Assembly (NCBI GenBank): GCA_964647075.1
Contig: CAZYGQ010000004.1
Coordinates: 1-33,586 of the forward strand
Length of the DNA stretch: 33,586 nt
DNA from: an uncultured Candidatus Saccharibacteria bacterium
GTDB taxonomy: Bacteria > Patescibacteriota > Dojkabacteria > SC72
Direction: 5' to 3'
Shown: positions 5,636 to 32,987 of the stretch, one piece after another
Position numbering within the stretch: position 1 is the stretch's first letter
Layout of the letters: each line of letters begins with the position of its first letter
Program-made: the position numbers and the translations under genes
Notes under the pieces: generated by a model
What the model was told of the DNA's origin: nothing
Database searches by the model: none
What the model saw: only the letters and a program-made list of their open reading frames with translations

Positions 5636-5712
5636 GGAGTGGTAGCTCAATTGGTTAGAGCATCTGCCTGTCACGCAGAAGGCTGCGGGTTCGAGTCCCG
5701 TCCATTCCGCCA
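5636..5712 (+). tRNA. tRNA-Asp (anticodon GTC), CCA encoded
   Basis: Hand-folded 77-nt cloverleaf. Acceptor GGAGTGG/CCATTCC (one G-T pair). D arm GCTC-AATTGGTTA-GAGC. Anticodon arm TCTGC-CTGTCAC-GCAGA. Variable loop AGGCT. T arm GCGGG-TTCGAGT-CCCGT. Discriminator G, then CCA. Confidence 0.93.
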
Positions 5713-5875
5713 TAATCCTCTGGTTCCTTATAGACCCGTGTACTACCTCTTAGAAAGACTGTTAAACCTTAATTATTTTGACCCTCAAAAAACAAGTTTT
5801 CGGAAATATGGCCTGGTGTATAAAAAGGACTGAAAAAGGCCCTACTTTTATACCCCCTCCGTTCGAAGTTAGAAT
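5713..5875 (+). repeat. dispersed repeat copy A (modules M + R), starting exactly at the tRNA-Asp 3' end
   Basis: TAGACCCGTGTACTAC aligns with module M. ATTATTTTGACCCTCAAAAAACAAGTTTTCGGAAATATGGCCTGGTGTATAAAAAGG...CCGTTCGAAG aligns with module R of copies B, E, G and H. Confidence 0.8.
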
Positions 5876-6004
5876 GTAGATATAACACAAGAATTGGGGT
5901 GTAGAGGAATTTTTGATTCCGTTACATTCTCGTTCACCTTACTATATTTTCTGTGGATAATTAGACAATATTATTGTCAATTATATTGACAAATAACTTG
6001 ACAA

Positions 6005-6784
6005 TTAATCAAACTCTATCTGTTTCAGATAATCTCTAAACAGTTTAATCTTATCTCCCTCTTCTTTATTTATTAAAAACGGTTGTACATCTTTAACCAT
6101 AGAATCTAAATCAACTTCCTTTATACCTTCTAGAATCTTTTCTCTAGCCTGATCCCAATTAGAAACACCAAATTTAAGAGTAAGAAAGCCAATATCTGGT
6201 TTGGTATTCTGTAATAGGTAAAGAATATCGTAGAAGTCTCTACCCTTTGCTCTACTTCGTTGAGTAATAGTCCATAGCTTCTGAGAGAGAATTATTTCTT
6301 TAGGAGTTACCCTTATCTGCTTAAACACATTAAACTTGTTTAATAGATATAACTCTGATTCATACTGATACCCCTGATCAAATGTATCTATCTGTATATC
6401 AATCTTTTCTGTTTTAATATTACTTAACTTGTTCTCAAAAAGTATATTTGAAAATTTAATGTGACAATGAATAGCTTTCTTTTCAGTTACCTTTATTTCT
6501 ACATCAAAACCATGTCTCTGAAGTTCTTGCTCTATTTTTTTAGCAAGAGATGTGAATTCTTTAGAAGACAGTTCTTTGTTATCAAAGTCTAAATCCTCGG
6601 AGAATCTTTTAATTCCATGAACTATTCTTAAACCTGTACCACCTAGAAAAGATAGCTTAGTAGAAATATTTGAATTGAATATTATTTCTAATATGAGAAA
6701 TTGTAAATACTCTCTAAGTAGACCTCTTTCAAACCTATGTATATCACTTGGATACTGTTTCTTTATTTCTTCTATACTAAGCAT
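6005..6784 (-). CDS. abiEii: nucleotidyltransferase toxin, AbiEii/AbiGii family (type IV toxin-antitoxin)
   Basis: 259 aa. FLGGTGLRIVHGIKRFSEDLDFD is the family-typical nucleotidyltransferase motif. The gene overlaps the upstream AbiEi-like gene by 8 nt. Confidence 0.8.
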   Translation of the reverse strand: MLSIEEIKKQYPSDIHRFERGLLREYLQFLILEIIFNSNISTKLSFLGGTGLRIVHGIKRFSEDLDFDNKELSSKEFTSLAKKIEQELQRHGFDVEIKVTEKKAIHCHIKFSNILFENKLSNIKTEKIDIQIDTFDQGYQYESELYLLNKFNVFKQIRVTPKEIILSQKLWTITQRSRAKGRDFYDILYLLQNTKPDIGFLTLKFGVSNWDQAREKILEGIKEVDLDSMVKDVQPFLINKEEGDKIKLFRDYLKQIEFD

Positions 6785-7391
6785 CGAGATATTTTAGTAA
6801 TAACTTAGACCTATTATTTAATTCTAAATTGTCAAATAGATTAAGATATGTATTAAACCTCTCCTTGTCAATCGTACTATTTATAATCTCTGTATTAAAC
6901 CTTAACCCCTCTAAATCATCTATAGTTGAGATCTCAGAATGTAGGTAAAGATAGTCCAAAATTGCCTTTTCAGGAGTAGCTAATGTAAATGGTCTGTCAT
7001 TGTTTTCAATAACCTCATATCCAAAGTAGAGGTTATTCTTAATACTTTGGTATGAAAATACACCATATTGAGTATCAAAAAGATTGGTCTTTCTGGTCGA
7101 TACAGAAGTTATTTGTAAAGTAGTTTCTGGTATAAATCCATAATGACTTAAAGCACTTTCTAGAGATATATAAGATGGAGAGTATATCTTGTTTGCTATA
7201 AAGAAGTAATCATTTCCTTGAGGATTGAAACTAGAGTCTGCATACCAAAATCTCCTAATTCTCTTTATCCATCCATTATTCAACCAATCATTTAAAGTTG
7301 GTTCTCTAAAATCAGGATCTAGCATCCTAATATCGTTTAGTGTAAATACACCTAAACTTCTTAAATTGTTTTGTATCTCTATGTACTTCAT
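6777..7391 (-). CDS. abiEi: AbiEi-family antitoxin / transcriptional regulator (type IV toxin-antitoxin)
   Basis: 204 aa. N-terminal winged-helix-like LRSLGVFTLNDIRML...LNDWLNNGWIKRIRRFWY and C-terminal PEKAILDYLY are typical of AbiEi. Operon position directly upstream of abiEii. Confidence 0.7.
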   Translation of the reverse strand: MKYIEIQNNLRSLGVFTLNDIRMLDPDFREPTLNDWLNNGWIKRIRRFWYADSSFNPQGNDYFFIANKIYSPSYISLESALSHYGFIPETTLQITSVSTRKTNLFDTQYGVFSYQSIKNNLYFGYEVIENNDRPFTLATPEKAILDYLYLHSEISTIDDLEGLRFNTEIINSTIDKERFNTYLNLFDNLELNNRSKLLLKYLDA

Positions 7392-7510
7392 TTCTGTAAG
7401 ATACGGTTTTCCGTATGTTATAGAAACAGAATACCATAAACCTGATGCTTAGACAAGTATTTCCTAAGATATTCAATAATATTTATGTTTTAATTTACAT
7501 TAAATATTTG

Positions 7511-7625
7511 GGGATTGAGTTATTTTGACCTTAAAAGGAGAAGTTCTCAAAAGTAAGGCCTGGTGGATGAAATGAGTCAAAAAAGAGGTGTTTTTAAGAG
7601 CTGTTGGTTCGAAGGGAGAAGCCTT
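7511..7625 (+). repeat. dispersed repeat copy B (module R only)
   Basis: GGGATTGAGTTATTTTGACCTTAAAAGGAGAAGTTCTCAAAAGTAAGGCCTGGTGGATGAAA...GTTGGTTCGAAGGG is colinear with R of copies A, E, G and H. Confidence 0.85.
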
Positions 7626-7655
7626 ATCCATTGGCAAAAAGGTTTGTTATTAAGG

Positions 7656-8450
7656 TTAATTTTCAAAAAACTTCTTAAAATTAGGCTCGTTTTTAAAAAC
7701 CTCTATAGAACATGCCGCTCTCAGAGGAACGTAAGGAAAAGCTTTTAGAAGATCTTCTACCGTTTCTGAATTACGAACCTTCTTAAGGAACTCTTCTGCT
7801 TTTTGTTTATTAGTACTACCATCCTTTGAGACAAATTGACCCCATACATCAAATCTTCTGAACGCACCCTCTGACAAACTTTCTTCCATACTCTCGGTCC
7901 ATTCTTGAGGATACACAGCTCTATACCCTTTATGGTTACAAAGCCAAGACCTCGTTGTCACAGTTTTTAAATTTGGGTTTATCTCTAATGCCTTATTTAT
8001 GGCCATCACTATTTCCTTCCTTCTGTTCTCAACTTGATTCGGAGAAAATGGTGATTCATCTCCAGGTATTGAATTATGAAAATGCATGAAGATAACGTCC
8101 TCTTCTCCATCTTTTTCAATAGAGGCATATATACAAGCATCTTTAGGTCTATCTGGATTCCTTTCCTTTAAATGTTTTCTCTCTAAATATTTCTCGTGTA
8201 TTGATTTAGTCAATGCATTAGCGTCTGCATTTTCAATTGGGAATTGAGTAGAAAATGCCTCCCCTAAATTTGTTAGTTTGGGAAGTTGAGTTAAATCCTG
8301 TAATGCTTTTTGAAACGGTATCTCTCGTTCAGACCCTTTTGTTACTTGAAAAACCTTATTAGCAAACTGGACTTGAAGATTAACAAATTCTTCATCATAC
8401 TTTGGTTCTAAATCTTTGTTATCAGTAAGGTCTGATTCTGTAATATCCAT
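7656..8450 (-). CDS. hypothetical protein (264 aa, cytoplasmic, no family recognised)
   Basis: Long ORF filling the interval between repeat copies B and C. No TM helix or signal peptide. Confidence 0.55.
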   Translation of the reverse strand: MDITESDLTDNKDLEPKYDEEFVNLQVQFANKVFQVTKGSEREIPFQKALQDLTQLPKLTNLGEAFSTQFPIENADANALTKSIHEKYLERKHLKERNPDRPKDACIYASIEKDGEEDVIFMHFHNSIPGDESPFSPNQVENRRKEIVMAINKALEINPNLKTVTTRSWLCNHKGYRAVYPQEWTESMEESLSEGAFRRFDVWGQFVSKDGSTNKQKAEEFLKKVRNSETVEDLLKAFPYVPLRAACSIEVFKNEPNFKKFFEN

Positions 8451-8469
8451 ATATTAGTAAATATATCAG

Positions 8470-8545
8470 AAATAAGACACTTTGTCCCCCTTTTATACTG
8501 TCTTATTTGTCTCATTTTAGGTTCCAGACGTGTATGTCCCACCAC
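8470..8545 (+). repeat. dispersed repeat copy C (module L + core), with a 10-bp hairpin
   Basis: TTTTATACTGTCTTATTTGTCTCATTTTAGGTT plus core CCAGACGTGTATGTCCCACCAC (8524-8545). AAATAAGACA (8470-8479) pairs with TGTCTTATTT (8499-8508). Similarity to other copies stops after the core. Confidence 0.85.
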
Positions 8546-8589
8546 ATTTCCCCATTCTAAAAAGATATCAAGGATGATATAATTGGGAC

Positions 8590-9531
8590 ATGGAAATAAC
8601 GATAAAGACAATATTAATAATACTGTTAATCAATTTTATAGTTGCCCCCTTCCTTATTCTCTTTCTTGATAGGCTGGGCTTTTACAAAAAGATAAAGACT
8701 ACAAAAGAGGTAGAGAAGAAAAGAAACAAAAAATACTATAAACATATGTTATCAAATATTGCCACACCTTCCTCTTTCGGATTTCTCCTAATAATCCTTT
8801 TGTCTATATACATTTCTGTATTTAAAACTTCAACCGAGTCCCTAATCATATCTTCCTCTGCCATACTACTTGGTACGCTAGGATTTGTTGATGATATCTT
8901 CGAGTTCTTCCTTTATAGAAAGATAAATCGTTGGGGTATAAGAGCTAGGTATAAGATGCCTATACAGATTCTTGTACTATTTATAGCTCTACTCCTACTC
9001 TCTAAATCAATCCTTCTAGCTGGGATTTTAGCTTTACCTCTGGCATTTATACTAAATTCCTTTAATATTACTGACGGAATGGATGGTTTAGCTACTGGTC
9101 TTGCTATTCCCTCTTTTCTCTTTTTTGCATATCTTGAACACACTCAGTACGGAGAAAGTTCAATACTGTTTCTCATACTCCTAATTCTCACATTTCTTTT
9201 TACCTTTTTCGTTTTCAATATTAAACCTGCAAAGGTATTTTTAGGAGATAGTGGCTCCTATGCAATTGGAACAATACTTGCACTGTTAACAATTAGATAC
9301 AATCTACTTTTTACAATACCTGTAATAGCTTTCTTTTTGGTAGAGGGTATTAGCAGCTTTATACAAATTGTCAGTATTAAAGTTTTCAAAAAGAAGTTCT
9401 TTCAGATAGCACCACTACATCTTCACCTACTAAATTCTGGATGGAGTCAATGGAGAGTTATACTAACAGCATGGATAATTCAGATTGTAATTACTACATT
9501 AACCTATGTAATATATTCATATGTTAAATAA
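8590..9531 (+). CDS. mraY: divergent MraY-like polyprenyl-phosphate sugar-1-phosphate transferase (glycosyltransferase family 4)
   Basis: 313 aa, multi-TM. LGFVDDIFEF (DD motif), NITDGMDGLATG, VFLGDSGSYAIG and C-terminal IAPLHLHLLNSGW, which matches the MraY APxHHHFExxGW region. The usual TPTMGG is TPSSFG and HHH is HLH. Confidence 0.7.
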   Translation: MEITIKTILIILLINFIVAPFLILFLDRLGFYKKIKTTKEVEKKRNKKYYKHMLSNIATPSSFGFLLIILLSIYISVFKTSTESLIISSSAILLGTLGFVDDIFEFFLYRKINRWGIRARYKMPIQILVLFIALLLLSKSILLAGILALPLAFILNSFNITDGMDGLATGLAIPSFLFFAYLEHTQYGESSILFLILLILTFLFTFFVFNIKPAKVFLGDSGSYAIGTILALLTIRYNLLFTIPVIAFFLVEGISSFIQIVSIKVFKKKFFQIAPLHLHLLNSGWSQWRVILTAWIIQIVITTLTYVIYSYVK

Positions 9532-10777
9532 AAGGCTGAAGAAAATTATTAGTGAATTCTATGATATCCCTGCAGCACCCTTCTGTATTAATCAAAAGAG
9601 TGAATATATTAAATCATATCTTACAAATAAAGGATTAGAATACGAAGAAACCCCCTACTACATTTCTAGTGTTATAAGAGAGAGCAGAAATGGCAAAAGG
9701 ATACTATTTTTTTCTCACTTGGATCATCCAGGCTTCATATTTAAGAACAATAGAGAAGGAATAGCACTGGGAACTCTATATCTAGATAGAATTAAAAATT
9801 ATGCACCAATATCTGTGTACTCTCCCTCTGGTGAGTATTTAGGTGATGTAGAACTTGAAAAAGCATCTGGATTAGGAAATAAGAATGTAGTAATTTCTTC
9901 TGATTTTGATATCCCAAAAAACTCTCAAGGTTTATGGAATACCGCGGAAACTAAGTTCACAAATAGAAAAATATTGGGGAGAAGTCATGATAATGATATC
10001 GCTACATGCTTGATGCTAAACAGCATTGAAAAGATCTCAGAGGGTGAATATGGTATAAAGTTCGTTTTTACAAAGCATGAGGAGGTATTACAACAAAGCT
10101 CTTACAATATTTCAAAAAACAATTCTTTTGACATTTCTGAAGATGATATTGTAATAAATCTAGAATCTATGAAAGTATATCCAATTACAAGAGAGGAAGA
10201 GTATTCTAATCTAAACTATGATGATGGTCCTATACTAAACATTTCAGAGAAGTCTTGTTTATACAGTACCAAAGGGAGAAATCGGGCAGAGAGTATAATT
10301 AACAATATATCTGACGAGAAGAATATTCAAATCCAGAGAGGTTTGGCAGGTGGAACTACAGATGCTAGACATATTGTAGAGTTTAGCTTAACAGATAATG
10401 TAGTTACATTAAATATCCCTAATAGATATAAGCATAATACGGATGGAAAGCGTATTCGTCCTGAGGAAGTATTAATAAAAGATGTGTTATCTGTTTCAGA
10501 GATTCTAAAGAATATATTGCATAGTCCTGATTTAAATCTTTCAGAAAACAGTAAGGATATACAAGTTGATTCTATCAAAGATTTAATTGAAGAGAGAAAG
10601 AGTCTTAATATATTGAATAGGAGGTTAGATATAGCTTCTCATGATATTGTTAGAAGGGGTTACTACTTCCCAAAGAGTATATTAGATTGTGCAAAAGATT
10701 TCTTTTGGAAATCCTTCTCCTATCTTTACTATATTGCTAAGAATGGAATAGGTCGTATCCGTGTTTCCAAAGATTAG
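9521..10777 (+). CDS. M42-family (FrvX-like) metallopeptidase homologue
   Basis: 418 aa. FFSHLDHPGFIF (cf. AHMDEIGF), RSHDNDIATCLML (cf. DNRxG), FTKHEEVLQ (cf. EEVG) and GGTTDARHI (cf. GGTDA). The start overlaps the mraY-like stop by 11 nt. Confidence 0.55.
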   Translation: MLNKRLKKIISEFYDIPAAPFCINQKSEYIKSYLTNKGLEYEETPYYISSVIRESRNGKRILFFSHLDHPGFIFKNNREGIALGTLYLDRIKNYAPISVYSPSGEYLGDVELEKASGLGNKNVVISSDFDIPKNSQGLWNTAETKFTNRKILGRSHDNDIATCLMLNSIEKISEGEYGIKFVFTKHEEVLQQSSYNISKNNSFDISEDDIVINLESMKVYPITREEEYSNLNYDDGPILNISEKSCLYSTKGRNRAESIINNISDEKNIQIQRGLAGGTTDARHIVEFSLTDNVVTLNIPNRYKHNTDGKRIRPEEVLIKDVLSVSEILKNILHSPDLNLSENSKDIQVDSIKDLIEERKSLNILNRRLDIASHDIVRRGYYFPKSILDCAKDFFWKSFSYLYYIAKNGIGRIRVSKD

Positions 10778-10790
10778 TAATACAATATAC

Positions 10791-10851
10791 ACTCCTTTTT
10801 ATACTGTCTTGTTTGTCTCATTTTAGGTTCCAGACTCGTATGTCCCGCCAT
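10791..10851 (+). repeat. dispersed repeat copy D (module L + core)
   Basis: ACTCCTTTTTATACTGTCTTGTTTGTCTCATTTTAGGTT plus core CCAGACTCGTATGTCCCGCCAT (10830-10851). Similarity ends right after the core. Confidence 0.85.
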
Positions 10852-10900
10852 TTTAAACAAATGAAATACTCTATTATAAATATTTATAATATAATTAAAT

Positions 10901-11074
10901 ATGAATAAAAATAACCAATATTATTTCATTGACCTTAATGTAATTACTATGAAGATAGTTAATTGGGGTATATCTAATACTGCAACACTAACAGGAGAGA
11001 CCTCAGATAAGGATGTTCATAGGATATTCCTAACAAAAGGTCAATACAATAAAGTAGTAAAGTACCTTAAATAA
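10901..11074 (+). CDS. small ORF (57 aa), hypothetical
   Basis: Hand translation: MNKNNQYYFIDLNVITMKIVNWGISNTATLTGETSDKDVHRIFLTKGQYNKVVKYLK*. It is below the ORF-track size cutoff and is the only ORF in the 233-bp insert between the two core copies D and E. No family recognised. Confidence 0.3.
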   Translation: MNKNNQYYFIDLNVITMKIVNWGISNTATLTGETSDKDVHRIFLTKGQYNKVVKYLK

Positions 11075-11084
11075 AGATTCTGTA

Positions 11085-11210
11085 CCAGACGTGTATGTCC
11101 CGCCATATTTTCAAGGTTGCGACAAGACCCGTCCACTATGTTTTAAAACCCTTATGGAGATTGAGTTATTTAGACTCTAAAAAGTGAAAGTCTCAAAAGT
11201 AAGGCCTGGT
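11085..11210 (+). repeat. dispersed repeat copy E (core + M + truncated R)
   Basis: Core CCAGACGTGTATGTCCCGCCAT (11085-11106), then GCGACAAGACCCGTCCACTATG (M), then GATTGAGTTATTTAGACTCTAAAAAGTGAAAGTCTCAAAAGTAAGGCCTGGT (R). Similarity stops at GGCCTGGT, inside the 3' end of the HAD gene. Confidence 0.85.
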
Positions 11211-11698
11211 TTACCTCTTACAGTTGAATTCCTATCAAAAACAATCTCAAAATAACTGTATAGATTAAAATAACTAAGTATTTTTTCAACATATTCCTTT
11301 TTAGATGAAGTAACTATAATATTTCTTTTACCCTCTTTCTTAGAATATATTAAAAATTCCCCTATCGAAGGAGAAAGATATACTTCATCCCCTAATCTCT
11401 TCTCAATTAAGGCCCTTTTGTATTTATTAAATTTTTCATTTAATTCCTCCGAATTAAACTCTAATATACTATGAATTAAAAGATATTCTTTAATACCATT
11501 AACAGAACCCTTACCTGATATATATTTCATAAAATCATCCTTCGTAAAATCCAAACCAAACATCTCCCTGAAAACCATTGAGAAAGCATCAACATTTAAT
11601 TTATCTAAATTAACCAATGTTCCATCAAAATCAAAAAGAAAAGCCTTAGAGTTATCTACCCGTTTTTTTACATCTTCAATTGATATTTTGTTATTCAT
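11177..11698 (-). CDS. HAD-superfamily hydrolase (beta-phosphoglucomutase-like), apparently 3'-truncated
   Basis: 173 aa. Motif I FLFDFDGTL, motif II IIVTSS, motif III GKP. The last 11 codons (PGLTFETFTF*) are encoded by repeat copy E. The expected motif IV (GDxxxD, usually ~20-25 aa after the Lys) is absent. Confidence 0.65.
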   Translation of the reverse strand: MNNKISIEDVKKRVDNSKAFLFDFDGTLVNLDKLNVDAFSMVFREMFGLDFTKDDFMKYISGKGSVNGIKEYLLIHSILEFNSEELNEKFNKYKRALIEKRLGDEVYLSPSIGEFLIYSKKEGKRNIIVTSSKKEYVEKILSYFNLYSYFEIVFDRNSTVRGKPGLTFETFTF

Positions 11699-11796
11699 AT
11701 TCTTAATATATCAGATATATTCAAATATCAAAAGATGTTGAAAACACGTAGGTTTATTGATATAATGGTGCTTTCTAACTTTACAATTATAACGAC

Positions 11797-12057
11797 ATGA
11801 GAAGCGAAAGTTACTGTGGAGAAATAATAATTGGCAAAAGCTCTACTGGCTACCCAATTAATATAAATCCTGAAAAAAGAGTTGAGAATACTATAAATGG
11901 TGTCGCAAAGTTAATGCAAAATCCAAATATGACTCAAGAAGATATAGATTACTGTTTAAAAGTTAACTCCAAAAGATTAGGAATTGATTCAGACGATTTA
12001 CTTTCTCGCGTTGAAGAAATATTAGATGGAGAAAATTCAGAGGAAACAGAGGCGTAA
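11797..12057 (+). CDS. hypothetical protein (86 aa, acidic C-terminus)
   Basis: ORF from the track in an otherwise empty interval. No recognised motifs. Confidence 0.4.
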   Translation: MRSESYCGEIIIGKSSTGYPININPEKRVENTINGVAKLMQNPNMTQEDIDYCLKVNSKRLGIDSDDLLSRVEEILDGENSEETEA

Positions 12058-12126
12058 TTCTAACACATTTTAAGAGCTCAATTCCATTATTGCTGACTTA
12101 AAAAAAAGTGTGTTAGAATATTACAT

Positions 12127-12789
12127 ATGAAGAAGTCAGTTCCGAAAGTGTTTCTAATATCTTTTCTTTTCCTTATCAATATTTCAGGAGTTGTATACTC
12201 TGCAAAATATCTAGCACCCCTAGTTTTTACCCTATCTAATAAACCGCAATACAAATATTCTTTTGAAAATGGAAGACCCAATTTAGTATCCACCAAAAGT
12301 GATACAAAGAATAGAGATAATCTTAATATTAAATGGGGTGCTATATTCTACTATCCTTACCAAAGTATTAGACCAGAAGAAATCCACCTCCATGAAGATA
12401 ACTTAGAGTGGACGTGGAGAGAAGAAAACAACAAATTAATGGGAGAAACATTGATTGAGTCTTGCAATGTTACTTTAGAGTATACAATTGAGAATAACAA
12501 ATTATTAAGTAAAGTCTCGTTTAAAAATAACACCGACAAGACCATTCAAAATCTTCGTTATGTTTTTGATATTAATTTCCCAGCCCATTTTGAGGTAGAG
12601 AATGATAAAATTCGAACTTCAAAAAACAAAAATGCAGGAGAAATACTCATAAGTACATCTTACTATTTAGGTAAATTAGAGGAACAATATAAAGGGAAAG
12701 AAAAAAGCTCCGCTTCCTATACCGTATATATGGGAGATATTATTCCAAACCAAAGTAACTATGCAATAATAGAGCTCGTATACCAATAA
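12127..12789 (+). CDS. secreted hypothetical protein, first gene of the surface locus
   Basis: 220 aa. N-terminal signal peptide MKKSVPKVFLISFLFLINISGVVYSA. Its stop overlaps the start of the next gene (TAATG). Confidence 0.6.
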   Translation: MKKSVPKVFLISFLFLINISGVVYSAKYLAPLVFTLSNKPQYKYSFENGRPNLVSTKSDTKNRDNLNIKWGAIFYYPYQSIRPEEIHLHEDNLEWTWREENNKLMGETLIESCNVTLEYTIENNKLLSKVSFKNNTDKTIQNLRYVFDINFPAHFEVENDKIRTSKNKNAGEILISTSYYLGKLEEQYKGKEKSSASYTVYMGDIIPNQSNYAIIELVYQ

Positions 12790-15047: not shown

Positions 15048-15140
15048 TTTTATGAACTGTATAGTATATTTGTATTTAGTCTGTTGACAAGTGCTCTGTG
15101 AATATATTACGATTAAACTGTAATCTTATTTATAAAAGGA

Positions 15141-15842: not shown

Positions 15843-15858
15843 TTTGGTATTCGAAAAA

Positions 15859-17232
15859 ATGAAAAAAACAAAAACTGCCCTATTAACACTTTTACTATTA
15901 AGCCTTATTTATTCTACAGTATTCGCAATTGGACAGGATGGTATAGGCATATTACCTGCATATCCAAGGGAAGATAACGAGAGAACCCAATCCATATTTA
16001 TTTTCGAAAGTGCACCAGGAACTACTATTAATGATGGTGTTGTAGTTATGAACAACACTACAGATACTAAAACAATCTTAGTTTACGCTACCGATACAAC
16101 ACCTTCTTCGGACGGAGCTTTTGCTTGTAAACAGCTTTCGGAGGACATAGTTAACGAAGGAACTTGGTATAAATTAGAAGAAAGCGAAGTTACTCTCGAA
16201 CCAAATACAAATATAATTGTGCCTTTTACAGTTACAATCCCTGAAGATGTCTCAGTTGGTGAGCATAACGCTTGTATTGTAGTCCAAGAGAAAAAAGAAG
16301 CAGAAAACAATGCAGGAGTTAATTTAAGTTTCAGAGCAGCAATTAGATCTGTAGTAACAATACCTGGAGATATGCTTAAAAAGTTGGAAATAGAGGATTT
16401 CTTCTATACTAAAAACGAAGGTGGAAAAAATCAACTTACTGTTACATTGGCAAATAGTGGGAATGTGTCTTTGGATACCTCAATAAAAATTGATGTTAAT
16501 AATTTGATTTCCTCTAAGCTCTTTTATTCAAACACCTCTGAATTTACAATATTAAACAGTAACCAACAGACCTTTAATTTCGATATAGAAAATAACCCTT
16601 GGGGAGGTATATATAAGGCAGTTGTAACAATTACATTTGATGGTCAAAACGGGCCTGAAACATTAACAAAAGAATTAACCTTTGTAATTGTTCCATCAGT
16701 CTATGCTATGGCACTGTATGCTTCTGTATTAATAATATTGATTACTGCAATATTACTTTTATCTGGATCTAAAAGAAAGTATAAGATGGCTGTAAGAGAC
16801 TCTGAAGAATATATAGTTAAAGAGGGTGACACTTTAAACTCAATAGCAAAAGATCATAACGTTAAATGGAAATTACTTGCAAAAATAAATGGTAAAAAGG
16901 CTCCCTTTGAGGTTAAAGTTGATGAAAGGCTTAAAATACCTATGGTTAAAGGTAAAGAAAAAACCCAGGAAACTCCATTAATGGCCGAAAACAATCTCCC
17001 TAATGAGAGACCTGTAATACCTACTACATCCATTCCTACATTTAATAACCAACAAACAGAAGTAGGAGTTGAACCTGTACAAACTCCTCCAGCAGCTCAA
17101 CCAGCACCTTTTGTAGTAAGTGAGCCTATCTCAAATCCACAGCCAATTCCTACTCCAACTAATACACCACAGGAAAGTACATCAGAAGATATTATCAAAG
17201 ATATTCAAGGAGATATTACTAAAGCTCAGTAA
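15859..17232 (+). CDS. DUF916/DUF3324-like cell-surface protein with TM anchor and C-terminal LysM + Pro-rich tail
   Basis: The track draws a TTG start at 15844, but ATG at 15859 (MKKTKTALLTLLLLSLIYSTVFA signal peptide) is more plausible. ILPAYPREDNERTQSIFIFESAPGTTINDGVVVMNNTTDTKTILV and VTLEPNTNIIVPFTVTIPEDVSVGEHNACIVV resemble the DUF916 partner protein of WxL loci. TM helix VYAMALYASVLIILITAILLLSG. LysM YIVKEGDTLNSIAKDHNVKWKLLAKINGK...VDERLKIP. Confidence 0.6.
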   Translation: MKKTKTALLTLLLLSLIYSTVFAIGQDGIGILPAYPREDNERTQSIFIFESAPGTTINDGVVVMNNTTDTKTILVYATDTTPSSDGAFACKQLSEDIVNEGTWYKLEESEVTLEPNTNIIVPFTVTIPEDVSVGEHNACIVVQEKKEAENNAGVNLSFRAAIRSVVTIPGDMLKKLEIEDFFYTKNEGGKNQLTVTLANSGNVSLDTSIKIDVNNLISSKLFYSNTSEFTILNSNQQTFNFDIENNPWGGIYKAVVTITFDGQNGPETLTKELTFVIVPSVYAMALYASVLIILITAILLLSGSKRKYKMAVRDSEEYIVKEGDTLNSIAKDHNVKWKLLAKINGKKAPFEVKVDERLKIPMVKGKEKTQETPLMAENNLPNERPVIPTTSIPTFNNQQTEVGVEPVQTPPAAQPAPFVVSEPISNPQPIPTPTNTPQESTSEDIIKDIQGDITKAQ

Positions 17233-17346
17233 GGATTTAATTAGGATATATATCCAAAGTTAAAAATGGACAACATATCATCTATCAATTAGATAGGTCA
17301 AAAAGAAATACCCTTAAAAATATATTTAAATTAATATCCGAGTAAT

Positions 17347-18576
17347 ATGAAAAAAAATCTGCTCATAATATTTTCTATCATATTAACAATAGCTATTCTT
17401 TTAGTAGGAGAATACTTTCTCTTAATGTCATATAGAAAAAATAGAATAGAAACTACAACAGAAACAAATACACCAAATGCAATGATGTTGTTAATAGAAT
17501 TTGTAGATACAAAAGGATTAGCAAATATGGTTAATGATATGAAAGAGAGAAATATAAAAGGACTTCTAATGATTAATGGAGAATTCATAGAAGAGAATGC
17601 ACAAGATCTTAAAGAGATTTTAAAAACAGGAGTAGTTGAATTAGCACCATCATATGATCCAGAACCATTCTGGGATATGCCATATGAGAAACAGTACGAG
17701 ATAATATCAAAGATGATAGAAAATTCTAAAACATATCTAGGAGTAACACCACGAGTCATTAGTTCAAGATATATGGCCTCAGATGAAAATACCATTAAAG
17801 TAGCACAAGAATTAGGAATAGAATATATAACAGCAAGAGGAACAACAGAACTAGCAACAACAATATATAAACCAGAAGAGTACGATGTGAAGATAATCTC
17901 TGTCTCTAATATAGATATACCTGAATTTAAATATGGTAGCTTCTGTGACTATAGCTTCTATGAAAGAAATGGCTCTCCCGAAGACATGGAGAGACAATTT
18001 AAAAGAGCAATACAAAATAATAAATTCATGGCAGTATCACACACATACATAGGAGGAAAGAAAGAAAGATGGAATGATATGTGGCATAGGTTCTGGGAGA
18101 ACTACGAGGTTGATTGGGTAGATTTAGATACATTGGGGAGTGTAGATAGGGAGATGCCTATGTGGCAGATACCTGTAAACAAGAATGCTCCATATACTCC
18201 GGAGAAGATAAGACCTGCGATACCGTATGAGGAGGAAGAGAATGTAACTAATCCTTGTAAGGTAGAAGATCTTAACGAAGGGGAGTCTGGGATTTTAGAG
18301 AGTAAGAGCAATGAGGTTGTGGTTTTCCATAATGGTACTGGTCCTATGTGCATTGAGATGGAAGAATTCTTTCAAGAGAATAATATTGAATATGAAGAAC
18401 ATTTAACTACAGATACTGATTTTGGTACGCAATTAAATGCTTACAAGGGGAATATTTCAAAGAGTGAGGGTATTTCAGATAGTTATGGTTACTACCCTAT
18501 TATCTTTGTAGAAGGGAAAGCATATTCCGGGTTTAGCGAAGAGATTGGAGATGAGATATTAGGGACGTTGGAATAA
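17347..18576 (+). CDS. membrane-anchored protein, weakly polysaccharide-deacetylase-like, with a thioredoxin-fold-like C-terminus
   Basis: 409 aa. N-terminal TM helix LLIIFSIILTIAILLVGEYFLL. The middle region loosely resembles a NodB fold (PRVISSRYMASDENTIKVAQELGIEYI), but the TFDDG and HxxxH motifs were not seen. The C-terminal VVFHNGTGPMCIEMEEFFQENNIEYEE...IIFVEGKAYSGF is glutaredoxin-like without a CxxC. Confidence 0.45.
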   Translation: MKKNLLIIFSIILTIAILLVGEYFLLMSYRKNRIETTTETNTPNAMMLLIEFVDTKGLANMVNDMKERNIKGLLMINGEFIEENAQDLKEILKTGVVELAPSYDPEPFWDMPYEKQYEIISKMIENSKTYLGVTPRVISSRYMASDENTIKVAQELGIEYITARGTTELATTIYKPEEYDVKIISVSNIDIPEFKYGSFCDYSFYERNGSPEDMERQFKRAIQNNKFMAVSHTYIGGKKERWNDMWHRFWENYEVDWVDLDTLGSVDREMPMWQIPVNKNAPYTPEKIRPAIPYEEEENVTNPCKVEDLNEGESGILESKSNEVVVFHNGTGPMCIEMEEFFQENNIEYEEHLTTDTDFGTQLNAYKGNISKSEGISDSYGYYPIIFVEGKAYSGFSEEIGDEILGTLE

Positions 18577-18610
18577 CTGTAGAGGATATACAGTATTTTC
18601 GGAAGTCATT

Positions 18611-18700
18611 CCATATCCTCCGCCAATTTCAACATGTTCCAACAAGACCCGTTCGCTGATATGGTAACTCCTTAAACCTCATCTTAAAGTCCTAAAGATT
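18611..18700 (+). repeat. dispersed repeat copy F (degenerate core + M + start of the following spacer)
   Basis: CCATATCCTCCGCCAATTTCAACATGTTCCAACAAGACCCGTTCGCTGAT aligns with H GTGTATGTCCCGCCATTTCCAACATGTTCCAACAAGACCCGTCCACTAT. CAACATGTTCCAACAAGACCCGT is identical in both. Confidence 0.75.
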
Positions 18701-18768
18701 AATAAACTGTTGAGATATGATTAAATAGGATGTATAAATTAATATATATTAATTTATAATATTAAAAT

Positions 18769-19263
18769 ATGGCAAAACCTACAAAAAATGCAGCAATTAT
18801 ATGTACTATTGTATCTATTATTGCATTGATAGGAATCATTATTGGATTATCAAAAGGTATTCCCCTACTAATTATATCTCTTTTACTTCCAGCGGTAGTA
18901 TATGAAGTGTATAGAACTGAAGGAGAGTCAACAAGATCTTCATCCATTATTCTTTTAGTTGTGTTAATAGTTGAAATAATACTTGTACTATTTAATATTA
19001 ATTTTAATCTTGCTGAATTCCTAGGTACCACTGAAGAATACATCGGGGGATATCTAGTACCTCTTGGAGAAATTAAAGTGGTCGGCCCAACTCTCATGTC
19101 CATACTTTCAGTTATCCTTTTTGTGAGAACTCGAGGAATATATACTAGATGGTTAGCAGTAACAATCTTTATTACCTCTTTAGTAATAATATACTCAGTT
19201 AACCCTAAAATATTCAGCGATTTGATTAAGATGGCATTACAAGAAGGACTAAGACAGCTATGA
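18769..19263 (+). CDS. small integral membrane protein (about 5 TM helices), hypothetical
   Basis: 164 aa, dominated by hydrophobic stretches (AAIICTIVSIIALIGIIIGL, LLIISLLLPAVVY, IILLVVLIVEIILVLF, LMSILSVILFV, LAVTIFITSLVIIY). Confidence 0.55.
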   Translation: MAKPTKNAAIICTIVSIIALIGIIIGLSKGIPLLIISLLLPAVVYEVYRTEGESTRSSSIILLVVLIVEIILVLFNINFNLAEFLGTTEEYIGGYLVPLGEIKVVGPTLMSILSVILFVRTRGIYTRWLAVTIFITSLVIIYSVNPKIFSDLIKMALQEGLRQL

Positions 19264-19265
19264 AA

Positions 19266-20366
19266 TTAGAGTAAAGAACTAATCTTGTTTATCATATCTT
19301 TTACTTCCTCTCTACTTAGATACCCCTCTTCCAAAAGAGTACTATTTACAGGATAAACGACATGTTCTAAAAAGGTTATACCTTCGGAGTGAGTAGTGTG
19401 TGTTTCAGTTCTAAATTTTGTTAATGAGTGACAAAATTGTTTCCCACTGGGCAAATAACAAAGAGTTGACACAAGACTACCCGAAATAATATGTTTTCCA
19501 ATCTGTATGGCTTGAAGAATTTTTCCCTCAAGTGGTAATTCTTCTTTTTCAAATGCGTTTGGTGGATATTTTATCCTTGTATCAGTACCTCCTGATGCTT
19601 GAATTTTTGTTACAGTACCATCAAAATTCTTTATCTCAATAACTCCATCCCGCTTCTTCCCTTTCTTAACTAATCTCGGTGTTGGAGAAATAATAAAATA
19701 TACAGCTGAATACTTATTATATTTTCCTATCTCATATTTAAAATTTGATTCTTTTACTCCTTTTACAATCTGCTCTGATGCTTTGTTAAATTCTTTTAAC
19801 ATTTTATCCAATTCCTTTTCACTTCCAAAATGTTTCTTTATTTCTTCTCTTACTAAAGGATTTTGTAAAGTTTCTCCAAAGGTCATATTGTTTGTCATAC
19901 CTGGCATTTGAGCATTCATTAATCCCTTTGTCGTTTGAGTGACCATATTCTCCAAAGTCTGAGATGCTATTTTTTCATTTTCATAGTCTGCAATAGAAAC
20001 ATCGATATGGAAATCACATTCCTCAGGATTAATGTTGTTTGTTTTTTCTCTCATATTTTGAACATCTTTTACAGTTATACCGGTGATAAAGCCGGCTTGT
20101 ATTGCTTTAATCATAGCTTCATAGTAATCTGTCATAGATCCTCTTAACGTTTGAACCCCCACTACTATTGTAGTCTCTACAACTTTTCTTTTTTTATCTT
20201 CCTTGTTAACTTGAGATGCTATACCCTTTTCTTTATTCATAAATACCTCGGGATTAATATGCCCTATTCTTAAAACAAACTGATTACTGGATGAAGCAGA
20301 ATAGTCCAAGAGTTTCCACCTCTTTGGATCTGCAAAGTCTTCGAGTTTTAATTTTTCATCTCTCAT
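19266..20366 (-). CDS. hypothetical protein (366 aa, cytoplasmic)
   Basis: Long ORF 11 nt downstream of the 382-aa gene on the same strand. No recognised motifs. Confidence 0.55.
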   Translation of the reverse strand: MRDEKLKLEDFADPKRWKLLDYSASSSNQFVLRIGHINPEVFMNKEKGIASQVNKEDKKRKVVETTIVVGVQTLRGSMTDYYEAMIKAIQAGFITGITVKDVQNMREKTNNINPEECDFHIDVSIADYENEKIASQTLENMVTQTTKGLMNAQMPGMTNNMTFGETLQNPLVREEIKKHFGSEKELDKMLKEFNKASEQIVKGVKESNFKYEIGKYNKYSAVYFIISPTPRLVKKGKKRDGVIEIKNFDGTVTKIQASGGTDTRIKYPPNAFEKEELPLEGKILQAIQIGKHIISGSLVSTLCYLPSGKQFCHSLTKFRTETHTTHSEGITFLEHVVYPVNSTLLEEGYLSREEVKDMINKISSLL

Positions 20367-20377
20367 TAAAATATACC

Positions 20378-21526
20378 CTAGGTAACAGATTTGTCTTTTT
20401 CTTCCTTCTTAGTTTCAACAGTATTAATTTCAACATCAGTACCCTCTTCTACCGTTACCTTTACTTTGTTTTGACTCTTATCTTCTGTTTCAATTTTTTT
20501 ACTTTCAGATATTGACTTCTCATTAGATTGTTTTTTGTTCTTCTTACCCATTCGGATAACAAGCAAGACAATGAAAACTACTACTAGAATAGCTAATGCT
20601 AAAATCGCCAATTTAATAATAATGCCTTTAGTATTATCAGTAACAATCGTACTCTCTTCCTCGTTGTTTTCAGTTTCCTGGTCTATTGCAATCTCTCCTC
20701 CCACTTTCTCTATGCTCTGATTTGTAATCAATAGTGTATATTGATCAATGCTATCCCACTTCTCTCCATATGAGGATTGTTTTACTACAACATATATGTA
20801 TCCATCGGATTGGATTTCAAATGTTTTTTGAATAATTTGACCTACTTCAAGATTTAATCCATCCTCGTTAAAAAGCTCTGACCTATTACTGTCATAAACT
20901 GCGCAACCCACTTCAAAATCTCCTGTAGGTTCTACTTTTATCTCAATATTGTCACCCTTTTTTACCGCTAACCTGTAATAGTCTGAATTATCATTTCCCC
21001 CTATGCTCCCAGATACAAAACTAGATAAAGAACCCGTATATTCACCATATTTAATACCTAGTGCACTATTAAAATCCCCCCCAGCATCAGTTTTGCTCAT
21101 AGCATCCGTTCTATCTACTAGTGTAACATCATACAACTGAGAATTAGTTCTGTAAGAATTCTTTACAACTAAATAGTATTTTGTTGGTGTCAAATCAGCT
21201 CCGAGCCACTTTAATGTATCTTCTACATCTATACTTGTCACTATTTCGGTCTTTTCACTGTTATATAGAGATACGAATCCGAAGAATCCTTCTCCTGTAA
21301 TTTTATATCTTACATCTAATTCATATCCTGATTTAGAGTTAAAAAAGTAATAACAGGTACTATTTTCATTAATTACTCCTCCAGTATTTTCTCCTTCTTG
21401 AAGTTCTACGGCATTGGAAAAATCATTCCCACAAGTGGTAACTTCATTTGCATACACCGCATTTAAAGGGGAAAACAGTAGGGAAAGAAACAATAATGTG
21501 ATAAATAAATATAGTTTAGTGTTCAT
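20378..21526 (-). CDS. secreted, membrane-anchored protein with two PPC-like (pre-peptidase C-terminal type) beta-domains
   Basis: 382 aa. Signal peptide LYLFITLLFLSLLFSPLNAVYA. Two repeats of the pattern CGNDFSNAVELQEGE...YYFF and DAGGDFNSALGIKYGEYTG...NDNSDYYRLAVKKGDNIEIKV...AVYDSN. TM helix IIIKLAILALAILVVVFIVLLVI, then a Lys/Glu-rich tail. Confidence 0.55.
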   Translation of the reverse strand: MNTKLYLFITLLFLSLLFSPLNAVYANEVTTCGNDFSNAVELQEGENTGGVINENSTCYYFFNSKSGYELDVRYKITGEGFFGFVSLYNSEKTEIVTSIDVEDTLKWLGADLTPTKYYLVVKNSYRTNSQLYDVTLVDRTDAMSKTDAGGDFNSALGIKYGEYTGSLSSFVSGSIGGNDNSDYYRLAVKKGDNIEIKVEPTGDFEVGCAVYDSNRSELFNEDGLNLEVGQIIQKTFEIQSDGYIYVVVKQSSYGEKWDSIDQYTLLITNQSIEKVGGEIAIDQETENNEEESTIVTDNTKGIIIKLAILALAILVVVFIVLLVIRMGKKNKKQSNEKSISESKKIETEDKSQNKVKVTVEEGTDVEINTVETKKEEKDKSVT

Positions 21527-21603
21527 TATAATTTGAATTAAATTAACTATACACTTAAAAGTTTAGCAAATATTCTCTGAATTGCAAATCAAAGAGTACT
21601 CTT

Positions 21604-21815
21604 TTTACTTTGTCTCATTGTCATCTCTCATAGGGTCCAGACGTGTATGTCCCGCCATATTTGAGCTGTTCCAACAAGACCTGTGTACTATGTTTAAAGA
21701 GCCTTTTAAGACTTGTTTTGTTTATCCTTAAAAACAGGAGTGTTCAAAAGTAAGGCCTGGTGGATGAAAAAGTGAGAAAAAGAGATGTTTTTTAAGCTCC
21801 TCGGTTCGAAGGAGA
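21604..21815 (+). repeat. dispersed repeat copy G (full length: L-like + core + M + R)
   Basis: Core CCAGACGTGTATGTCCCGCCAT at 21637-21658. M is GTTCCAACAAGACCTGTGTACTATG. R is TTCAAAAGTAAGGCCTGGTGGATGAAAAAG...CTCGGTTCGAAGGAG. Confidence 0.9.
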
Positions 21816-21836
21816 AAGGCCTATTTAGCACAATAA

Positions 21837-22727
21837 TTACTTACTCAACTTAATATGATCCACTACCTTCCCCCCTACCAATTCCAATTCATATTTTTCT
21901 ATCAATTCCAAAACAACCTCATTTAACCTATTCTTGTAATCATTACTCTGAGAATCAACAAAAAGTCTGTGCTCTTCCTTACTCAACTTATCTCCAACCA
22001 GTTTCATCAATCTCTTCATCTTCTTACCTTTCAAATTAATATGCTCTACCCATACTACGTTAGTACCCGCCTCCTTTATCCTTCTAAACAGTTTTTCCAA
22101 ACCCTTCTCATTAGCAACAAAATGAGGAAGAAGAGGACCTACAAAAGCATATGTATTTATACCCTCTTTATTTAATTCACTTAATGCTTTTATTCTCAAA
22201 GAACTAGGAGGAGCATAACTCTCAAACATCTTACTAACTACGTCATCTGTAGATGTAATTGTCATACCTATTTCCAAATTGGGGATTTGTTTAAATATAT
22301 CTATATCTCTAGTTACTAATGGGGATTTAGTAAGTAAGGAAATTTTAATATCCTTTTTAATTTCACTCTCTGCTATTATTTCTAAACATTTTTTTGTTAA
22401 CTGGTACTTAGCTTCTACACCCTGGTATGGGTCTGTAACAGAACCAAAGAATATTGCTGGCTTATCTCCTTTTTTAAACTCATTCTTTTTAACTATCTTC
22501 TTAGAAAGATTACTTAATTCTTTTTCAAATATTTGTGGGGTATTAGTCTTAATATCTACATACTCACCCCATTTATCATTAGTATGTCCTGTAAATCTTC
22601 TAGTAAAGTCTGCGTAGCAGTATACACAACCGAAAGCACATCCTGAGTATGGATTAACTACATAGTCTGCACCTGGTAGTTTACTTGGTGTTAGTACAGA
22701 CTTAGCTTCTTTCTGAGTAATTTTCAT
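21837..22727 (-). CDS. radical SAM protein, SplB-like (COG1533 DNA-repair-photolyase family)
   Basis: 296 aa. VVNPYSGCAFGCVYCYADF carries the CxxxCxxC cluster in the family-typical NPYxGCxxxCxYCYA context. Confidence 0.85.
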   Translation of the reverse strand: MKITQKEAKSVLTPSKLPGADYVVNPYSGCAFGCVYCYADFTRRFTGHTNDKWGEYVDIKTNTPQIFEKELSNLSKKIVKKNEFKKGDKPAIFFGSVTDPYQGVEAKYQLTKKCLEIIAESEIKKDIKISLLTKSPLVTRDIDIFKQIPNLEIGMTITSTDDVVSKMFESYAPPSSLRIKALSELNKEGINTYAFVGPLLPHFVANEKGLEKLFRRIKEAGTNVVWVEHINLKGKKMKRLMKLVGDKLSKEEHRLFVDSQSNDYKNRLNEVVLELIEKYELELVGGKVVDHIKLSK

Positions 22728-22746
22728 TCTTAGCCATTATAACAAG

Positions 22747-22985
22747 AATAAGACATTTTCTCCCCCTTTTTATACTGTCTTATTTGTCTCATTTTAGGTT
22801 CCAGACGTGTATGTCCCGCCATTTCCAACATGTTCCAACAAGACCCGTCCACTATCTCTAGGAATCCCTTGGTTGCTTCATAAAATCGTCCCTAAATTTA
22901 AGTATTTCGATTTCACATCCTGGTGGATGAAAATACCCATTTTAAGACCAGTTTTTACTACCCCACGGTTCGAAGGTAAAAGCTT
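22747..22985 (+). repeat. dispersed repeat copy H (full length: hairpin + L + core + M + R)
   Basis: AATAAGACA (22747-22755) pairs with TGTCTTATT (22776-22784). Core CCAGACGTGTATGTCCCGCCAT at 22801-22822 is identical to G and E. M is TTCCAACAAGACCCGTCCACTAT. R is CCTGGTGGATGAAAATACCC...CACGGTTCGAAGGT. Confidence 0.9.
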
Positions 22986-23065
22986 GATACGATACAGCTT
23001 AGATGCATCCTTGCATGGTATAATATACTAGAGGACAAGATATCTAAATTAAGTCTTTACTAAAT

Positions 23066-23359: not shown

Positions 23360-23419
23360 CAAAGAGGATGTAACTCAATACACTTGGAAAGAATTATGAA
23401 AAACGAATAAGGAAAACCT

Positions 23420-24250: not shown

Positions 24251-24281
24251 AGTAATATAATATCGCTAAAATTTTAATTTA

Positions 24282-24869: not shown

Positions 24870-24892
24870 ATCACTATTATATCATTCAAAAC

Positions 24893-32978: not shown

Positions 32979-32987
32979 AACAATATC

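Follow-up and report, generated by a model that had tools for sequence, protein, structure and literature searches.

The 33,586-nucleotide window analyzed here (the whole of the stretch taken from contig CAZYGQ010000004.1, which comes from an uncultured member of the Dojkabacteria) contains, behind its tRNA-Asp gene, a series of small gene cassettes separated by copies of a modular direct repeat and, farther downstream, the gene for a large serine recombinase. The locus probably arose by tandem accretion, at the tRNA-Asp 3′ end, of units that integrate site specifically, with the serine recombinase as the likely enzyme. An earlier interpretation, made without database searches (the sequence-only reading), had already described the repeats and proposed their relation to the tRNA.

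The repeat consists of up to four modules, L, core, M, and R, which occupy positions 1 to 53, 55 to 75, 76 to 110, and 111 to 239, respectively, of a 239-position nhmmer profile of the full unit. Repeat finding, local BLAST, multiple alignment, and the profile recover eight copies in the window, all downstream of tRNA-Asp and on its strand, with the modules always colinear. These are the eight copies of the sequence-only reading, whose coordinates agree with the present ones within a few bases. Its four-module structure is retained with a core of 21 nt instead of 22 nt. Copy H is full length, as it had stated, but copy G, which it had also considered complete, has a degenerate L module; copy F is indeed a copy but carries a different pseudo-tRNA end (referred to here as type 2) instead of the standard core. 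No copies are found in the window beyond copy H, even with filters off. The tRNA and the eight copies are as follows.

5636 to 5712, forward strand: tRNA-Asp(GTC), identified by ARAGORN and Rfam; chromosomal anchor and left half of the putative attB, with a 3′ end (...TCCGCCA) that replaces the core.
5713 to 5876, forward strand: copy A, M+R (profile match 5688 to 5876), abutting the CCA of the tRNA; putative attL-type junction.
7507 to 7623, forward strand: copy B, R-only remnant (profile positions 123 to 239).
8454 to 8544, forward strand: copy C, L+core with the core at 8524 to 8544 (profile match 8481 to 8564), followed by unrelated DNA; putative attR-type junction.
10787 to 10850, forward strand: copy D, L+core with the core at 10830 to 10850 (profile match 10787 to 10858).
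11085 to 11210, forward strand: copy E, core (11085 to 11105), M, and partial R (profile match 11082 to 11210), reaching into the HAD gene at its 3′ end.
18596 to 18657, forward strand: copy F (profile match 18620 to 18657), type-2 pseudo-tRNA 3′ end (...TTCGGAAGTCATTCCATATCCTCCGCCA, ~18596 to 18625) followed by M.
21598 to 21819, forward strand: copy G, degenerate L, core (21637 to 21657), M, and R (profile positions 26 to 238); putative attP-type junction.
22752 to 22983, forward strand: copy H, full L, core (22801 to 22821), M, and R; putative attP-type junction.

The 21-nt core, CCAGACNNGTATGTCCCRCCA, occurs five times in the window (at 8524, 10830, 11085, 21637, and 22801), always on the forward strand; 100 shuffles contain no match to it, even with 2 mismatches allowed. 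The last 26 nt of tRNA-Asp align colinearly with the end of L plus the core, with 17 of the 26 positions identical, and alignments confirm that copy A starts where the tRNA ends, with the 3′ end of the tRNA in place of L+core. The likeness of M to the 3′ strand of the tRNA, seen already in the sequence-only reading, is upheld as well (GACCCGTCCAC versus GTCCCGTCCAT), over a shorter stretch than in the core. M is a paralog of the core, with GTTCCAACAAGAC followed by CCGTCCA where the core has GTTCCAGACGTGTATGTC followed by CCGCCA. In the distant Patescibacteria genome L203 (positions 17120 to 17330 and 19470 to 19680), the equivalent of L+core includes a clean mimic of the T arm, GGGTTCCAGACCC, followed by ...CTCCGCCA; the core therefore appears to be a decayed tRNA 3′ half. 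In the arrays, the commonest repeat has long conserved arms and, as its pseudo-tRNA end, the diverged sequence CCAGACNNGTATGTCCCGCCA. The type-2 end of copy F is also found in loci L006, L008, L009, L022, L029, L044, and L056.

L contains a conserved promoter-like TATACT box with GAGACA upstream of it. The inverted repeat in this module covaries between lineages (GAGACA..TGTCTC versus GACAC..GTGTC, the latter, compensatory version being that of L203), and L may be a regulated outward promoter. A possible small protein encoded in core-M-R was considered and rejected: M shows an apparent synonymous pattern, but there is no 3-base periodicity or conserved open reading frame (ORF), and several subtypes have early stops.

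A scan of ~186,000 species genomes with the core pattern yields 79 loci, with ~9 expected by chance. The chance matches come from Serratia, Porticoccus, and similar genomes; the rest belong to Candidatus Dojkabacteria or to metagenome-assembled genomes (MAGs) automatically labeled Saccharibacteria or Patescibacteria. The same pattern finds at least 120 further loci in metagenomes and has no match in IMG/VR. The survey set comprises 200 related loci (1.07 Mb), mostly from Dojkabacteria-like MAGs, with 448 profile copies, and the repeats have a single orientation within every locus. On contigs of 121 to 724 kb, exact core matches are confined to a single 8-kb locus each; in MAGs, array copies are frequent at contig ends.

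tRNA-Asp is found upstream of the repeats and in the same orientation in 9 genome loci and in additional metagenome loci. In 7 of these 9, M+R starts on the base after CCA, and its subtype varies between genomes, so that the first unit beside the tRNA evidently turns over. The tRNA-Asp anchor of the sequence-only reading is confirmed, but it is not the only one: M or M+R also abuts three tRNA-Ser genes, tRNA-Ser(TGA), tRNA-Ser(GCT), and tRNA-Ser(GGA), which likewise end in CCGCCA. All anchors that encode their own CCA end in YCCGCCA, and the neighboring tRNA-Arg and tRNA-Tyr genes, which have other 3′ ends, are not used. The simplest cases are single insertions at tRNA-Ser in L011, L107, and L114, where the tRNA is followed by M or M+R, one gene, and L+core, and then by other DNA; in L107 and L114, both flanks are homologous but the cargo differs. 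Besides L+core, the left partners of M+R include true tRNA-Asp 3′ remnants and the type-2 end, all of which finish in CCGCCA.

The 114 intervals between copies have a median length of 1,028 nt, and 65 of them contain one ORF and 30 contain two. Relative to the tRNA, 108 of the interval ORFs (62%) have the antisense orientation and 66 the sense orientation. The commonest unit consists of R, a gene in either orientation, and L; behind copies that have only L+core, the next gene is sense in 16 of 18 cases, and several cassettes have promoter-like sites of their own.

Behind a housekeeping flank that is conserved among related genomes, the cassettes are highly polymorphic, which favors the sequence-only reading, and the breakpoints lie at the core. 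The housekeeping flank of the window is ~66% identical at the nucleotide level to that of L024, whereas a 234-nt mini-cassette (10851 to 11084) is 95% identical in the two loci, including its flanking repeats. The mini-cassette alone is 99.0 to 99.6% identical in the window, L024, L038, and L074, where it lies between different L and M flanks. Arrays at tRNA-Ser and tRNA-Asp also share cassettes (L124/L074, 99.4% identity; L129/L024, 87% identity, both in first position).

Among the first 79 loci and the window, 34% of the ends of blocks with at least 93% identity that lie inside both members of a pair fall in or next to repeats, which account for 9% of the sequence, and the ends near repeats cluster at the core. 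In the 200 loci, at an identity of at least 95%, the mode is exactly the end of CCGCCA, where 15 block ends fall on position 0 and another 8 and 9 fall on −1 and +1, respectively; a further maximum is seen 20 to 29 nt downstream, between AAGAC and C in the paralogous segment of M. For example, L004/L009 and L022/L074 are 99.9 to 100% identical to the right of CCGCCA (100% in L004/L009), with a tRNA remnant or a type-2 end facing a core on the left (a tRNA remnant in L004/L009), and L066/L074 is a further pair with a break at CCGCCA. Breakpoints of this kind look like the signature of site-specific exchange within a common segment of 6 to 7 bp, unlike those of homologous recombination.

As stated in the sequence-only reading, the large serine recombinase is the only recombinase encoded in the window, which has neither a tyrosine integrase nor IntI. 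That reading had set the enzyme aside; it is now the best candidate, and its element is bounded by M+R on one side and by an L-starting repeat distally.

24893 to 26191, reverse strand: large serine recombinase of 432 aa, with the Pfam domains Resolvase, Recombinase, and Zn-ribbon; integrase in PHROGs.
22984 to 33586, reverse strand: window part of the recombinase-bearing element, incomplete at the window end.

The window part of the element encodes 97-aa, 276-aa, and 195-aa ORFs, the recombinase, a type I restriction-modification system (26235 to 31456), an ADP-ribosylglycohydrolase, and 168-aa and 190-aa ORFs. The 276-aa ORF is weakly similar to p463, a conserved ORF downstream of the recombinase in L207. 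Database searches find thousands of recombinase homologs at 63 to 96% identity, many of them in sequences named Patescibacteria or Dojkabacteria, on contigs of up to 1.17 Mb. Homologs are present in the array loci L125, L146, L178, and L190 and in L200 to L211. In L125, L190, L200, L203 to L208, L210, and L211, the gene is antisense and lies 0.5 to 4.7 kb from the M+R arm; the succession of M+R and antisense recombinase is seen in the window, L190, L200, L203 to L208, L210, and L211. The element has the same order in every evaluable locus: tRNA or core, M+R, one to three small ORFs, the antisense recombinase, cargo (often restriction-modification genes), the terminase large subunit, a helix-turn-helix protein similar to the terminase small subunit, a ParB-N6 methylase, 2.5 to 5 kb of additional genes, and an L-starting repeat. 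The terminase and ParB-methylase genes, assigned with PHROGs (L211, 6741 to 11302; L207, 172 to 3354 and 10001 to 11302; L200; L203), follow beyond the recombinase wherever the locus reaches that far.

The L190 locus is arranged like copy H, with a repeat and, 1.5 kb on, the antisense recombinase. L200 is part of a Dojkabacteria contig of 724 kb; here, the element directly adjoins tRNA-Asp, next to the same enolase-TsaD-Sua5-thioredoxin-GGDEF flank as in the window. L211 is an IMG/VR contig; one copy of the element is listed as viral in IMG/VR. In L203 to L206, from the distant Patescibacteria genome, the recombinase is 65% identical, the anchor is a tRNA-Ser (L203, 12826 to 12913), and M+R is recognizable although diverged. 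A relative with 46% identity (L212, 9998 to 11254) is located 2.2 kb from a tRNA-Gln (13498 to 13572), and M+R is undetectable there; the L203 and L212 relatives have the same distance and orientation to their respective tRNAs (Ser and Gln). The recombinase family may comprise clades with different tRNA targets. M+R is matched with E values of ~1e-24 to 1e-38 at 82 to 100% recombinase identity and ~1e-8 at 65%, and the match is lost at 46%; the divergence of M+R thus parallels that of the recombinase.

In 11 array loci, the terminase or ParB-methylase end of the element is followed by an L-starting repeat. As this repeat always comes after the ParB-methylase end and M+R is always on the tRNA side, L-core-M-R would be the attP-type junction of the element. 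The recombinase-bearing element has its tRNA-proximal boundary at copy H and runs off the window end. L115 has DNA matching 32317 to 33586 of the window, with the ParB-methylase gene on one side and the next repeats that start with L on the other (first exact core at 4648); the distal L+core of the element is therefore expected ~1.8 kb past the window end. Three window genes, looked up by exact protein to extend the sequence, are not on record. No capsid or portal gene is seen in the 10-kb flanks. The recombinase element appears to be a phage satellite or reduced prophage with a wide distribution in Patescibacteria.

The type I specificity subunit encoded on the element (29284 to 29877, reverse strand) is half-size, with 197 aa, and includes a 12-nt tandem repeat in four copies (29347 to 29394) that encodes four ELEA units (TELEAELEAELEAELEARKK). 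Variation in repeat number could modify the spacer within the recognition sequence or serve for phase switching.

Taken as recombination junctions, the repeats would fall into three types: a tRNA followed by M+R would be an attL-type junction, L-core followed by M-R an attP-type junction between adjacent units, and L-core followed by unrelated DNA an attR-type junction. This assignment, proposed in the sequence-only reading, fits every junction type observed, including the single-cassette insertions at tRNA-Ser. The core would represent a pseudo-tRNA 3′ half, from the T loop to CCA, and the exchange would take place in or at its last 6 to 7 bases, YCCGCCA, which is why the tRNA would stay intact. 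The autonomous member of the family would be a 13- to 20-kb element with the large serine recombinase and with its hallmark genes all antisense to the tRNA. Since it is bounded by M+R and L+core, the excised circle would carry L-core-M-R as attP. The cassettes of ~1 kb, most with a single gene, would be nonautonomous units bounded by the same sites and presumably move individually. To judge from its position, the serine recombinase would catalyze these exchanges, moving the cassettes in trans or, through accretion, in cis, across genomes and across tRNA-Asp and tRNA-Ser anchors.

Several observations weigh against this mechanism. The exchanges are known solely from breakpoints between compared sequences. 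Large serine recombinases are normally strict in recombining attP with attB, and the internal attP-type junctions would require integration into attL- or attR-like sites, that is, a permissiveness like that for which the Ccr enzymes are known. The recombinase gene is not adjacent to the site but 0.5 to 4.7 kb away from it, and an element hallmark gene is present in only ~16 of the ~190 array loci, which leaves most cassettes far from any recombinase. The halves around CCGCCA contain direct GTTCCA motifs and no obvious inverted ones. The conserved unit of ~280 nt greatly exceeds the ~50 bp that a serine recombinase needs, so L and M+R must have an additional role. Finally, in L020 (5150 to 5800), a sense gene of ~600 nt separates L (after ...CTCATTAT) from the core, which is not duplicated, so that not all boundaries obey the core-to-core rule.

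The sites might instead be served by another enzyme, such as a tRNA-targeting tyrosine integrase or an Xer-type recombinase with its gene at a different place in the genome or on a phage or plasmid, in which case the serine recombinase element would be a passenger in a hot spot. A common crossover segment of 6 to 7 bp is a classic feature of tyrosine integrases that act at tRNA 3′ ends, these enzymes readily integrate into attL- and attR-like sites, and most cassettes are remote from any serine recombinase gene. In Prochlorococcus, partial-tRNA repeats delimit tandem elements with tyrosine recombinases (bioRxiv 10.1101/2020.12.28.424599). Nevertheless, this explanation is unlikely. The placement of the serine recombinase element is not random, with M+R on the tRNA side and the L-starting repeat after the ParB-methylase end, and M+R codiverges with the serine recombinase. 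Profile and single-sequence searches with XerC, XerD, lambda Int, and Cre detect no tyrosine recombinase in the 1.07 Mb of arrays, although these queries are approximate and very divergent enzymes could escape them, and none is found among the called genes of the recombinase-centered loci. GC skew at the locus, examined for the location of the terminus and dif, is dominated by the coding strand and therefore gives no indication of either. The repeats might also be expression modules, with L as a promoter or operator and R as a terminator, and the cassettes might be swapped by homologous recombination after DNA uptake. The sequence-only reading had raised the possibility of expression signals in the arms, and it gains a little from the TATACT box and upstream GAGACA of L and from the sense genes behind L+core-only copies; some R subtypes have a hairpin and T run (e.g., a terminator-like site at 5843 to 5826 on the reverse strand), and repeats of 50 to 240 nt are long enough to serve as homology arms. 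The promoter and terminator consensus counts equal the shuffled expectation for such AT-rich DNA and so do not discriminate. However, the breakpoints peak to the base at the end of CCGCCA instead of spreading over L or R. Left sides that are alike only in CCGCCA (tRNA remnant, type-2 end, or core) join identical right-hand DNA, the mini-cassette lies between duplicated 21-nt cores, and M abuts the CCA of four different tRNAs, which homologous recombination would not be expected to produce. Exchange through homology arms alone is accordingly quite improbable.

It is still less probable that the unit is a multicopy structured noncoding RNA or a cis-regulatory leader, for instance, a tRNA-like or 3′-trailer-derived small RNA. 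L is promoter-like and points into core-M-R, copy A would be cotranscribed with the tRNA, and on the forward strand, 97% of cells allow pairing of an inverted repeat between M and R (CGTCCACT/GGTGGATG). However, a pure RNA gene would not explain the modular truncation at the core edges or the sharing of cassettes, and the checks that the sequence-only reading had proposed for a structured RNA reveal neither a known family nor a conserved fold. In Rfam, the repeat has no match at the gathering threshold and nothing meaningful at E values up to 10, the tRNA alone being matched; the RNAalifold consensus of 71 copies is ~0 kcal/mol on both strands; and the M-R helix shows no covariation beyond that of shuffled alignments, 353 of 500 of which reach the observed pairing. 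A generic dispersed element of the repetitive extragenic palindromic (REP) or miniature inverted-repeat transposable element (MITE) type, or an assembly artifact, is extremely improbable. The copies are often found at MAG contig ends, so that assemblies do break there, but the single orientation in each of ~190 loci, the tRNA-anchored arrays, the confinement of the exact core to one locus on contigs of 121 to 724 kb, and the absence of terminal inverted repeats argue against a REP or MITE, an outcome that the sequence-only reading had named as refuting it, and the same structure recurs in independent assemblies from many samples.

For the accretion of units by the serine recombinase, the closest analogs appear to be the ssrA islands of Dehalococcoides and the composites of the staphylococcal cassette chromosome mec (SCCmec). 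In Dehalococcoides, tandem islands with DsiB, a large serine recombinase of the CcrB family, are located downstream of ssrA and separated by direct repeats of the target 3′ end, with the integration module on the reverse strand beside attL; members without a recombinase have been interpreted as cis-mobilizable and moved by accretion (PMC3146451). The array resembles both systems in its tandem units behind one gene (rlmH or ssrA in those systems), in the direct repeats of the target 3′ end, in the reverse-strand position of the recombinase gene close to an attL-type junction, and in the domain set of the recombinase (Resolvase, Recombinase, and Zn-ribbon). The differences are substantial. The array has as its target CCGCCA at the very 3′ end of tRNA-Asp or tRNA-Ser, whereas the Dehalococcoides islands target the T loop of the transfer-messenger RNA. 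A recombinase is found in ~1 of 30 units, most of which are single-gene units of ~1 kb, compared with 16 of ~28 islands there, and the junction is ~280 nt with L and M+R arms instead of a 20-bp repeat and a 15-bp motif. A single recombinase gene takes the place of a CcrA/CcrB or DsiA/DsiB pair, terminase and ParB-methylase genes are part of the element, and the host is a bacterium of the candidate phyla radiation (CPR).

Integrons are similar in having long arrays of a single orientation, with mostly single-gene cassettes of ~1 kb and diverse cargo that are shared between genomes; in both cases, the site straddles neighboring cassettes and new cassettes arise beside a fixed anchor. However, no IntI tyrosine recombinase is found in the window or in the 1.07 Mb of arrays. 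Integron attC sites are imperfect palindromes of 55 to 141 nt with R″, L″, L′, and R′ boxes, whereas the repeats here have no attC palindrome fold and their boundaries are YCCGCCA instead of GTTRRRY. The anchor is a tRNA gene and not attI, the cassettes occur in both orientations, and the candidate enzyme is a serine recombinase on a terminase-bearing element. Cis-mobilizable elements (CIMEs) keep their att sites without a recombinase of their own. With CIMEs, tycheposons, and other tRNA islands, the array shares an intact tRNA at one end, 3′-end repeats at the boundaries, accretion, and polymorphism of the units. Tycheposons integrate at tRNA 3′ ends and push older elements distally, so that partial-tRNA repeats and remnants build up hypervariable islands (bioRxiv 10.1101/2020.12.28.424599). 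In contrast to the units described here, which are far smaller and more numerous, those islands use tyrosine recombinases and true partial-tRNA repeats; the large tyrosine recombinase that is the hallmark of tycheposons is not detected in the arrays.

A bolder proposal, which is possible but on present evidence rather doubtful, is that the system is a functional analog of the integron in CPR bacteria that is based on a serine recombinase. A terminase-bearing, satellite-like helper would supply a single recombinase, which would capture, excise, and reshuffle one-gene cassettes at pseudo-tRNA sites behind tRNA-Asp and tRNA-Ser; L would act as a promoter for regulated outward transcription, and the terminase genes would allow packaging and thereby the spread of cassette sets between species. 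CPR bacteria have genomes of ~0.7 to 1.2 Mb and few recognized mobile elements, and their gain of accessory genes is poorly understood. The locus points to a testable route of gene exchange, with one fixed chromosomal platform per tRNA and dozens of interchangeable one-gene cassettes for defense, cell surface, and metabolism that are 95 to 99% identical between genomes whose core genes are ~66% identical. Its candidate engine is a single, highly conserved family of large serine recombinases. Confirmation of this route would provide a serine recombinase counterpart to the integron and a compact pair of recombinase and site whose natural target is defined; it would also account for the breaks in MAG assemblies of these lineages at the locus. 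Searches of open-access text on Dojkabacteria cassettes, CPR integrons, and Patescibacteria serine recombinases associated with tRNAs yield no description of such a system. The distinguishing features are the host lineage, the CCGCCA target of tRNA-Asp and tRNA-Ser, the recombinase-less one-gene units with their integron-like size and number, the long arms, and the helper with terminase and ParB-methylase genes.

The cargo of the arrays is very diverse and includes methyltransferases, radical SAM proteins, AbiE, GmrSD, NUDIX proteins, a sortase with a surface protein, LD-carboxypeptidase, and many proteins without assigned function. In L001 to L199, it also includes heliorhodopsin, a protein similar to the large chain of RuBisCO, an ice-binding-like protein, LpxC, GmrSD, and pairs of sortase and surface protein. 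Accessory functions of these kinds would not have been expected in bacteria with genomes this small. The most frequent cargo families were inspected for a recurring recombinase, which is not among them; they are SDR, sortase, LD-carboxypeptidase, a NUDIX protein, DUF5674, and uncharacterized families.

In the window, housekeeping genes are located upstream of tRNA-Asp, and ORF and Pfam scans bear out the gene content given in the sequence-only reading. The intervals between the copies contain the following genes.

5877 to 7506, reverse strand: cassette with the AbiEii toxin gene (6005 to 6784) and a gene for a 204-aa partner (6777 to 7391), assigned with Pfam.
7656 to 8450, reverse strand: cassette with a 264-aa gene, no family match.
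8590 to 10777, forward strand: genes for a family 4 glycosyltransferase and an M42-like peptidase (Pfam), sense, behind the L+core of copy C.
10851 to 11084, forward strand: mini-cassette containing an ORF of 57 aa (10901 to 11074) and a promoter-like site of its own, flanked by two cores.
11177 to 18576: long interval with a HAD hydrolase gene on the reverse strand, followed on the forward strand by 86-, 220-, 752-, and 233-aa ORFs and the genes for a LysM/WxL-type surface protein and a polysaccharide deacetylase.
18762 to 21526, reverse strand: cassette(s) with 113- and 164-aa ORFs and with 366- and 382-aa genes that lack convincing family matches.
21837 to 22727, reverse strand: cassette with a radical SAM gene (Pfam).

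The 366-aa ORF (19266 to 20366, reverse strand) has a weak Pfam match to Ribosomal_S17e (E value of 3.4e-5, just above the cutoff), an archaeal and eukaryotic family, and this assignment is probably spurious. The segment from 17249 to 18536 of the long interval is 79% identical to L023. The AbiEii cassette is 92% identical to its counterpart in L041 and 84 to 85% identical to those in L002 and L028, in other contexts. This pair of AbiEii and AbiEi-like toxin-antitoxin genes is thus a traveling cassette of four genomes (window, 5983 to 7437; L041, 4550 to 6004; L002; L028; 84 to 92% identity), and a CCGCCA end with M+R is always found on its tRNA side. The radical SAM cassette is 78% identical to one in L041, where it is ~0.9 kb from the AbiE cassette, compared with 14 kb in the window.

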